Shown in pieces: positions 33,460 to 34,291 of a stretch of DNA of 64,000 bases. Numbering within the stretch: position 1 is the stretch's first letter; every line of letters begins with the position of its first letter. A program made the position numbers and the translations under genes. The stretch comes from a phage: the sequence record PZ452579.1. The stretch is one strand, 5' to 3'. The notes under the pieces were generated by a model that ran no database searches, was not told the DNA's origin, and saw nothing but the letters and a program-made list of their open reading frames with translations.

Positions 33460-33771
33460 TAAGCCTTGCGGCAACCTTGTCGGGGTTCCACCTGCTAAGG
33501 CAAGTGTTTGTACGAAACGCCGGGATTCGAACCCGGTTATTAAGTAGTTGACGCTACTCAATATTTTTAAAAGGCCATATCTCGACCATATCCGAACGTT
33601 CCGTCAAAAACGCTACTCGGCTTACGGCAAAGATATTTCCTCGAATCGATAATTCTGTGCGCCGTTTCTGCTGTGATGTAATGGGATATTAACAAATCGT
33701 AAAGATTTATTAAGACCAGTCCTTACTCAGGGAACATCAGTCCGACGACTTACCGGTAGCGACCCGGCTTC
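33460..33771 (-). ncRNA. candidate small stable RNA with tRNA-like T-arm
   Basis: No credible ORF; CCGGG-TTCGAAT-CCCGG T-arm-like element at 33516..33536 (minus sense); no canonical cloverleaf found. Confidence 0.25.
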
Positions 33772-34116
33772 TTATTTTGACATATCATCAATTTGCTCTC
33801 GACGCCGACGCCATAGATTAATCGCTTCATTAACACATTCGGCGTTTGGTATATGACGGCAATAATATAATGATTCACGTTTCTGGAACCGATGTTGCAA
33901 TGGTATTTCGTTTAAAAGGTCTTTACGGTCAAAGTATTCAAAACTAGTTAACCCAGAACGGTTTTTAATGAACTTCCAATGTCCAAATTCATTTTGAACA
34001 TAGATGTAATCGGCATGCTGATACAGCGAATTAATCAATCGATGAGAAATAACTGTGTCATATTCGTTAAAATAAAACGTTAAATCATGAACTACCAGAT
34101 AAATATTGCCTTTCAT
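33772..34116 (-). CDS. hypothetical protein (115 aa)
   Basis: Start at ATG (MKGNIYLVVHDL...) after SD GAGG; track ORF start lies inside tRNA-Arg. Confidence 0.5.
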   Translation of the reverse strand: MKGNIYLVVHDLTFYFNEYDTVISHRLINSLYQHADYIYVQNEFGHWKFIKNRSGLTSFEYFDRKDLLNEIPLQHRFQKRESLYYCRHIPNAECVNEAINLWRRRREQIDDMSK

Positions 34117-34134
34117 ATTTTCCTCACTTAAAGT

Positions 34135-34211
34135 TGGTCGAGACAGAAGGATTCTAACCTTCAACCTACGGATTAGAAGTCCGTTGCTCTATACAATTGA
34201 GCTATGCCTCG
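34135..34211 (-). tRNA. tRNA-Arg (anticodon UCU), CCA encoded
   Basis: Hand-folded cloverleaf: acceptor CGAGGCA/TGTCTCG, D GCTC/GAGC, anticodon stem ACGGA/TCCGT loop CTTCTAA, T GAAGG/CCTTC. Confidence 0.8.
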
Positions 34212-34217
34212 AATATA

Positions 34218-34291
34218 TGACCCAGACCAGATTCGAACTGGTAACCTTTCCCTTATGAGGGGACTGCTGCTAACCATTGAGCTACAGGGCC
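34218..34291 (-). tRNA. tRNA with CAU anticodon (Ile2-like or Met)
   Basis: 5' end and T-arm resemble E. coli tRNA-Ile2; anticodon loop CTCATAA; imperfect acceptor and D stems. Confidence 0.55.

Follow-up and report, generated by a model that had tools for sequence, protein, structure and literature searches.

The tRNA operon of an RB69-like phage carries homologs of the T4 stable RNAs rnaD and rnaC, with a predicted tRNA-like cloverleaf for rnaC

What is encoded by some 310 nucleotides (nt) of phage DNA that contain a perfect transfer RNA (tRNA) T arm, hold no obvious open reading frame (ORF) and lie downstream of a pair of tRNA genes? We addressed this question for positions 33460 to 34291 of a 64-kb stretch of phage DNA (sequence record PZ452579.1; 64,000 nt, hereafter the window). 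An original prediction, made from the letters alone, had described the locus as a minimal set of two tRNA genes followed by either a tRNA-like remnant or a small RNA. In our analysis the small-RNA reading holds and the remnant reading does not; the stretch, which had been treated as one element, is made up of two adjacent RNA genes and a 3' trailer. The two genes are homologs of rnaD and rnaC of phage T4, and rnaC is predicted to fold as a four-armed tRNA mimic.

Two RNA genes in a T4-type tRNA operon

Over 33400..34320 the sequence shares 95.7% identity with phage RB69 and as much as 99% with other Mosigvirus isolates; judged by this alignment, the window is that of an RB69-like Mosigvirus. 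On its minus strand, 34380..33433 is very probably a single T4-type tRNA operon, with the following elements in 5' to 3' order:

34354..34380, minus strand: candidate MotA-type middle promoter, TTTGCTTTA, 12 nt, TATTAT (by eye; block conserved with T4)
34218..34291, minus strand: tRNA with CAU anticodon, T4 tRNA-Ile ortholog, without encoded CCA (ARAGORN; Rfam RF00005, 54.0 bits)
34135..34211, minus strand: tRNA-Arg(UCU), predicted AGA reader, CCA encoded (ARAGORN; Rfam, 71.1 bits)
33772..34116, minus strand: ORF of 114 amino acids (aa), RB69ORF150c homolog, with a GAGG Shine-Dalgarno sequence (phrog_3355, E = 8e-50)
33656..33775, minus strand: rnaD, homolog of T4 species 2 RNA, about 120 nt (87% identity to T4; model R2)
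33511..33649, minus strand: rnaC, homolog of T4 species 1 RNA, 139 nt, predicted cloverleaf tRNA mimic (138/139 identity to T4; model R1)
33461..33510, minus strand: conserved 3' trailer with small hairpins, e.g. CACUUGC-CUUA-GCAGGUG (about 95% identity to T4)
33433..33460, minus strand: predicted intrinsic terminator of the operon, GCCCC-UUCC-GAAA-GGUU-GGGGC, then UUUUU (sequence; T4 homology)

The T4 reference record lists rnaD ('species 2 RNA', 119 nt) and rnaC ('species 1 RNA', 139 nt) as misc_RNAs directly after tRNA-Arg. Comparison with these RNAs, which the original prediction had proposed, gave a clear alignment: the segment 33777..33430 is 93% identical to the T4 rnaD+rnaC segment, and the protein genes flanking the operon are 70-83% identical between this phage and T4. 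The rnaC of the window differs from the T4 copy at a single position, and several other T4-like contigs have copies that match it at 100%. The context is also that of the T4 family, with rnaC on the minus strand downstream of tRNA-Ile, tRNA-Arg and rnaD; T4 has the same order of rnaD, rnaC, trailer and terminator in the same strand context downstream of tRNA-Arg, and rnaC is essentially unchanged between the two phages.

Covariance models point in the same direction. Model R1 was built from 14 rnaC homologs outside the T4 and Mosigvirus groups (Karamvirus, Winklervirus, Gelderlandvirus, Marfavirus, Kanagawavirus, Moonvirus, Kagamiyamavirus and others) and gave a single match in the window, 33649..33510, with 135 bits (E = 5e-32) over model positions 1-140 of 140. 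Model R2 was built from seven short-form rnaD homologs (Vequintavirinae, Karamvirus, Jiaodavirus and Marfavirus), with T4-like and RB69-like sequences excluded, and likewise gave a single end-to-end match, 33774..33656, with 45.5 bits (E = 2e-8). A search of Rfam at E ≤ 10 returned nothing for either RNA beyond weak tRNA-Sec and isrK matches, and no Rfam family exists for rnaC or rnaD.

Several features of the earlier description are retained in this picture. Between 33771 and 33461 the only ORFs are two short mechanical ones of 42 and 61 aa, which overlap, and the terminator reported at its end is present as a G+C-rich hairpin followed by TTTTT. The set of genes had been called minimal by comparison with the eight tRNAs and two small RNAs of T4; six of the T4 tRNAs are indeed missing, but both small RNAs have been kept. 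We have high confidence in the operon layout, the identity of rnaC and rnaD and the structure described below, taken jointly; our proposals on function stand outside this judgement.

The entities involved, namely rnaC and rnaD, T4 tRNA-Ile and the two-tRNA set of RB69, were all previously known; the features at the locus are real and well above what chance would produce, but finding them is itself not new. The two RNAs have been known from T4 since the 1970s and their function is a 50-year-old open question; it is still called unknown in a review and in recent omics work (PMC3014915; PMC9697503). Our literature search for a function or a published secondary structure found nothing beyond 'function unknown', the 1970s papers and Miller et al. 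2003 lying outside that search. What is added here is the comparative structure and the spread of rnaD, and we cannot exclude that parts of this stand in the older literature. The comparison provides experimental handles in the cloverleaf, the U.U-containing acceptor stem, the covarying loops and the U-CCA ends of two lineages.

Predicted folds of rnaC and rnaD

The perfect T-arm-like element of the original prediction is present at 33536..33520 (minus strand) as CCGGG-UUCGAAU-CCCGG and forms the T arm of rnaC, with a canonical 5-bp stem and a UUCGAAU loop. It had been said to lack a matching acceptor stem, a claim that does not hold: CGAUUCG (33648..33642) pairs with CGUUUCG (33519..33513), corresponding to rnaC positions 2-8 and 131-137, in a 7-bp helix with two U.U pairs that directly abuts the T stem and would stack on it. 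The stem is kept by compensatory changes across lineages, at positions 3, 4, 5 and 6; the distance of about 130 nt to its upstream 5' strand explains why it was overlooked. In the position of the D arm is a long, interrupted arm of about 20 bp (33641..33572), opened by an invariant AGG/CCU helix, and in the position of the anticodon arm is a 10-bp hairpin with the loop CGUCAA (33563..33538); the T arm begins 1 nt further on.

RNAalifold runs with 12, 17 and 18 homologs and the minimum free energy fold of the single sequence agree on this cloverleaf; the full comparative set comprises 18 homologs drawn from some ten phage genera. Of the cells in the 17-sequence alignment, 97.7% are paired; in the 18-sequence alignment the value is 93.5%, with U.U positions counted, compared with 36-47% when the partners are slid by 1-3 columns. 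Both sides have changed in 28 of the 47 pairs of the larger alignment, and none of 500 shuffles reached the observed values. The Jiaodavirus homolog (69.8 bits) illustrates these changes, with an acceptor stem CGGUAUG/CAUACCG in which the U.U pairs are replaced by U-A and A-U, and one C-G pair by U-A. These data argue strongly for a model of rnaC as a four-armed, non-decoding tRNA mimic of 139 nt.

In common with canonical tRNAs (RF00005), modeled rnaC has a 7-bp acceptor stem on a 5-bp T stem, the UUCGAAU loop and a four-arm cloverleaf. It differs from them in its length of 139 nt, in having neither a D arm and D loop nor a 7-nt anticodon loop, and in the two acceptor U.U pairs; it was not called by ARAGORN in the window and lies below the RF00005 gathering score. 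The tRNA-like domain of tmRNA and the YrlA Y RNA module are also non-decoding RNAs that keep an acceptor/T-arm module and have the rest replaced by long helices. Their topologies are unlike that of rnaC, as the 5' and 3' ends of YrlA close a long Ro-binding stem and tmRNA contains a coding region and pseudoknots. ARAGORN found no tmRNA in the window, and the Rfam YrlA model matched only over the true tRNAs (17.8 bits), with no match on rnaC. An alternative, internal 8-bp acceptor-like helix beside the T arm, ACGGAACG/CGUUUCGU, was considered and rejected, as it shows no compensatory change and is unpaired at one position in 7 of 11 sequences; this helix underlies the weak Rfam tRNA-Sec match (17 bits, E = 2.8, against a gathering score of 47).

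UUGACG (33607..33602), the loop at the tip of the long arm, and CGUCAA (33553..33548), the loop of the hairpin, are exact reverse complements of each other. The pair changes in concert, to UUGGCG/CGCCAA in Marfavirus and to UUGCAG/CUGCAA in Jiaodavirus, and the six complementary positions are kept in 18 of 18 rnaC sequences, in three forms in all. The two loops are candidates for a kissing contact, either within one molecule or between two, which makes them a possible dimerization site. At the 3' end, the nucleotide past the acceptor stem is U, followed by an encoded CCA in Marfavirus and Jiaodavirus and by ACAAA in the other lineages. The rnaC of Serratia phage LC53 (L017, 3426..3566) has an aberrant T loop, GGUGCAUCCCC versus GGUUCGAAUCC, with the remainder of the molecule conserved. 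A Karamvirus-like contig from IMG/VR (L009, 1075..1188, minus strand) contains a weak second match to the rnaC model (20 bits, E about 0.008), which may be an ordinary tRNA or a distant rnaC paralog.

A separate conserved RNA, rnaD is predicted to have a hairpin at its 5' end and, beyond it, a multi-helix domain that the helix GUCGUCG/CGGCGC closes. The hairpin, P1, is located at 33768..33752; the closing helix pairs 33749..33743 with 33664..33659 and shows two compensatory changes across homologs. Members of the family have in common an A/U-rich leader, the 5' hairpin, the closing helix and conserved UUCCCUG and AUCACAGCAGAAACGG blocks, and in T4 rnaD the hairpin, the closing helix and both blocks are as in the window. 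The sequence of the hairpin varies by lineage, with its pairing always kept in single-sequence folds. A MAFFT-based consensus fold of the full family recovered the closing helix and placed the 5' hairpin out of register; the hairpin was therefore judged by single-sequence folds and the short-form alignment. The 3' tail reads GCGC-ACA in the window versus GCGC-ACC(A) in T4 and RB69. This ACA (33656..33658) also occurs in one IMG/VR contig (L012), with ACC in T4, RB69 and most others, and its presence in place of ACC suggests that a CCA-like end of rnaD has been lost in the window.

Transcription, distribution and possible roles

The promoter candidate overlaps the stop codon of an upstream 171-aa ORF and belongs to a block that is 85% identical to the region upstream of the T4 tRNA cluster; TTTGCTTTA-N12-TATTAT fits the MotA middle-promoter consensus. 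A sigma-70 scan gave no convincing minus-strand promoter at the locus, and no late promoter (TATAAATA) was found near it. A simple pattern scan did not call the terminator at 33460..33433 because two U.U mismatches interrupt its stem; in its T4 counterpart a perfect stem of 9 bp carries the GAAA loop. Both the terminator and the MotA-type promoter were thus identified via homology to T4.

In the processing scheme that we propose, a single precursor would start upstream of 34291, from the MotA-type middle promoter and/or promoters further upstream, and end at the terminator hairpin. Host RNase P would cut at the base of every acceptor stem, that of rnaC included, and RNase E would cut the A/U-rich spacers. 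Trimming of the ends by 3' exonucleases would follow, and tRNA-Ile, whose CCA is not encoded, would receive it from the CCA-adding enzyme. The 3' trailer is probably removed in the course of processing, and the acceptor/T module would make rnaC a processed, stable RNA. Work on T4 in the 1970s-80s reportedly found that a dimeric species-2/species-1 precursor builds up when RNase P is missing, and species 1 RNA is said to be a substrate of RNase III in vitro. In a more recent study, RNAC and RNAD of T4 were assigned to the late RNAs, with validation on Northern blots (PMC9697503).

In other genera the two RNAs are placed differently. Much as a tRNA gene would be, rnaC is found inside tRNA arrays with spacers of 5-7 nt in Karamvirus, Gelderlandvirus, Winklervirus, Kagamiyamavirus and an Erwinia phage, for example as Trp-rnaC-Gly or Phe-rnaC-Trp, and the 3' trailer is absent where rnaC sits within an array. 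The rnaD family is spread more widely than that of rnaC, and its members follow a tRNA in Karamvirus, Jiaodavirus, Marfavirus, Moonvirus and the Vequintavirinae phage W70. In the last of these, an Escherichia phage outside Straboviridae, a short-form rnaD lies directly past a CAU tRNA (L006, 1996..2096; 90 bits with R2), and rnaC was not found in the 4 kb covered there. All copies recovered by pattern scans of metagenomes and IMG/VR were close to those of T4-like phages or Marfavirus, without any new diversity. The rnaC core pattern was absent from 185,579 bacterial and archaeal genomes, and a blastn search with rnaD+rnaC against 5,426 complete E. coli genomes gave no match; on these searches a host origin, or host mimicry, was rejected.

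The RNAs are easily missed in database records. Among 60 records, taken as a spread sample of 802 matching phage records, three carry rnaC or rnaD labels and many show 'hypothetical protein', and the RB69 record has nothing annotated across the rnaD/rnaC stretch. We conclude that both RNAs go unannotated in most of about 1000 phage genomes, where spurious hypothetical proteins or false tRNA calls often take their place. The record of Klebsiella phage VPA32 lists a 127-nt 'tRNA-Phe' just upstream of tRNA-Arg (L014, 6353..6479).

As to function, an indication comes from experimental evolution: in all three BW-1 lines evolved on ECOR34 a single convergent nucleotide polymorphism (SNP) arose in rnaD, with virulence changing from 0.17 to 0.98 (PMC12685909). 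We tentatively suggest that rnaC and rnaD may act in trans by tRNA mimicry, binding or titrating a host or phage factor that recognizes the acceptor/T domain of tRNA, with an effect that depends on the host strain; we regard this as a working idea with perhaps less in its favor than against it. A more specific version, to which we give still less weight, is that rnaC is a CCA-capable mimic whose non-acceptor half is locked by the kissing loops and which, together with rnaD, serves as a decoy or cofactor for a host-strain-specific tRNA-recognizing factor, such as a tRNA-directed defense toxin or a processing or modification enzyme. If true, such a role would explain the 99% cross-genus conservation, the conditional dispensability and the opening of a semi-permissive host by an rnaD SNP, and would provide a function for the two oldest orphan phage RNAs.

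Several points weigh against parts of this interpretation. Mosigvirus AV114 is naturally without rnaD and most of rnaC, and T4 deletions of the tRNA region are viable, from which it follows that any function of rnaC and rnaD is conditional. The loop-loop covariation comes from only two independent lineages, and a 4-6-bp contact between the tips of an arm of about 20 bp and a 10-bp arm needs a sharp bend, or could form between two molecules. The UACAAA tail in most rnaC lineages means that a CCA end is not general, and the 5' end annotated for T4 rnaC lies 1 nt upstream of where acceptor pairing begins. Assignment of the promoter was by eye, and the proposed role of RNase P at the 5' end of rnaC rests on structure and on the 1970s-80s T4 work. 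Discrete, stable rnaC and rnaD have been shown in T4 only, by Northern blot (PMC9697503).

The deletion in AV114 also removes tRNA-Arg. At the junction (L035, 1451..1600), the T loop GGTTCGAATCC is the point at which a tRNA-Asn-like 5' half meets the last 25 nt or so of rnaC, and the trailer and terminator follow.

Of the competing explanations, the one that fares best is that rnaD and rnaC have no function in trans and are structured by-products of processing, with a protecting or punctuating role at the 3' end of the operon transcript. The two RNAs do lie at the 3' end of the operon, just before the terminator, in T4-type and RB69-type phages, they are dispensable in AV114, and 50 years have passed with no function found (PMC3014915). 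In other genera, however, rnaC sits in the middle of a tRNA array, with rnaD about 1 kb away after a different tRNA, and the 3'-end position is therefore not conserved. Invariant loops that covary and a cross-genus identity of 99% speak for a role beyond punctuation, and a single rnaD SNP alters host-specific virulence. We consider the by-product explanation improbable.

That rnaC is instead a decoding tRNA with a long insertion is far less probable still. Such a view has been encouraged by gene callers, since ARAGORN calls a 95-nt tRNA-Met on the homolog of Enterobacter phage id4496 (L004, 2551..2645) and the homolog in KKP_3262 (H264) carries a tRNA-Phe annotation, and the acceptor and T arms are indeed tRNA-like, with CCA encoded in two lineages. 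In the hairpin at the anticodon position, however, a stem of 10 bp carries a loop of only 6 nt, CGUCAA, and this loop covaries with another one, which is unlike an anticodon. There is no D arm, the Rfam tRNA threshold is not reached, and the 'anticodon' of ARAGORN falls in a non-conserved stretch.

The remnant of the original prediction would be a decaying copy of one of the six T4 tRNA genes that are missing here. A perfect T arm without a called tRNA, and the tRNA-Sec match as the only trace of one in Rfam, might have suggested as much. T4, however, has the T-arm element in addition to its eight tRNAs, the identity to T4 rnaC is 138/139 where neighboring protein genes reach only 70-83%, all rnaC helices covary across about ten genera, and the helix behind the tRNA-Sec match is the one rejected above. 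On the available alignments we consider this reading already refuted by conservation and covariation, and its remaining probability to be negligible.

Nor is it at all likely that the stretch encodes small proteins: mechanical ORFs of 61 aa (33561..33376) and 42 aa (33695..33567) exist and many records annotate a 'hypothetical protein', but both ORFs start with TTG, one reads through the terminator, the substitutions among homologs are paired stem changes rather than codon-position changes, and the T4 products are known stable RNAs.

The two tRNA genes and the neighboring ORFs

Only two tRNA genes are present in the window, both on the minus strand, in agreement with the original prediction; neither ARAGORN nor the Rfam covariance models at gathering threshold found an additional canonical tRNA in the 64 kb. 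The CAU tRNA is identical to T4 tRNA-Ile at 73 of 74 positions, the sole difference being one substitution in the T loop, and is by sequence not functionally distinct from it. With E. coli tRNA-Ile2 (ileX), to which it had been likened, it has in common the GGCCC start of the acceptor stem and the anticodon loop CUCAUAA. The imperfect stems reported for this tRNA are present, at U6.U67, 13-22 and 27-43, and are common to T4 tRNA-Ile; they are conserved features of the T4 tRNA rather than a sign of decay. The tRNA also carries the pairs C4-G69 and C5-G68, which are determinants for TilS. With the body features of an Ile rather than a Met tRNA, the CAU tRNA is by this comparison a lysidine-type tRNA-Ile, predicted to read AUA. 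This is consistent with the report of two tRNAs in RB69, where the CAU tRNA was placed in the lysidine-modified Ile class (Nolan et al. 2006, PMC1524935). In most phage records it carries a tRNA-Met label.

In contrast to tRNA-Ile, tRNA-Arg(UCU) did not align with T4 tRNA-Arg, and its closest copies, at about 86% identity, are in Winklervirus and Marfavirus. It is not a sequence ortholog of the T4 gene: its D loop (AAUUGUAUA) is without the usual GG and its T loop reads UUAGAAU, a combination that looks like a swap of the elbow pair G19-C56 to U19-A56. The tRNA-Arg of the RB69 reference (L001, 3736..3814; 79 nt) has two additional G in the anticodon stem that are absent from the window and from the other Mosigvirus copies, which points either to a damaged RB69 gene or to a sequencing error.

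The two tRNAs would supply decoding of AUA and AGA. In the long ORFs of the window, AGA occurs at 8.9 per 1000 codons (19% of Arg codons) and AUA at 13.3 per 1000 codons (18% of Ile codons), a use several-fold higher than in E. coli. Frequent use of both codons by the phage fits the rationale originally given for the pair, that each reads a codon rare in E. coli.

The ORF reported between the tRNA genes and the ORF-free stretch is present at 34116..33772 and encodes 114 aa rather than 115. It and its neighbors match only families of unknown function in Pfam and PHROGs, phrog_3355 in the case of the 114-aa ORF, which has no Pfam match above cut-off. The ORF separates tRNA-Arg from rnaD, which are contiguous in T4, where rnaD begins 1 nt past the CCA of tRNA-Arg. 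In the window the rnaD 5' end mapped from T4 instead overlaps the TAA stop of the ORF (33772..33775), which places the ORF exactly at the T4 tRNA-Arg/rnaD junction.

A second ORF that is inserted relative to T4 lies directly past the operon terminator, within 32743..33429. It encodes 187 aa (33342..32779, phrog_2280), has a terminator of its own (32770..32743) and is flanked by terminator-like direct repeats; its RB69 counterpart is split into ORF148c and ORF149c.

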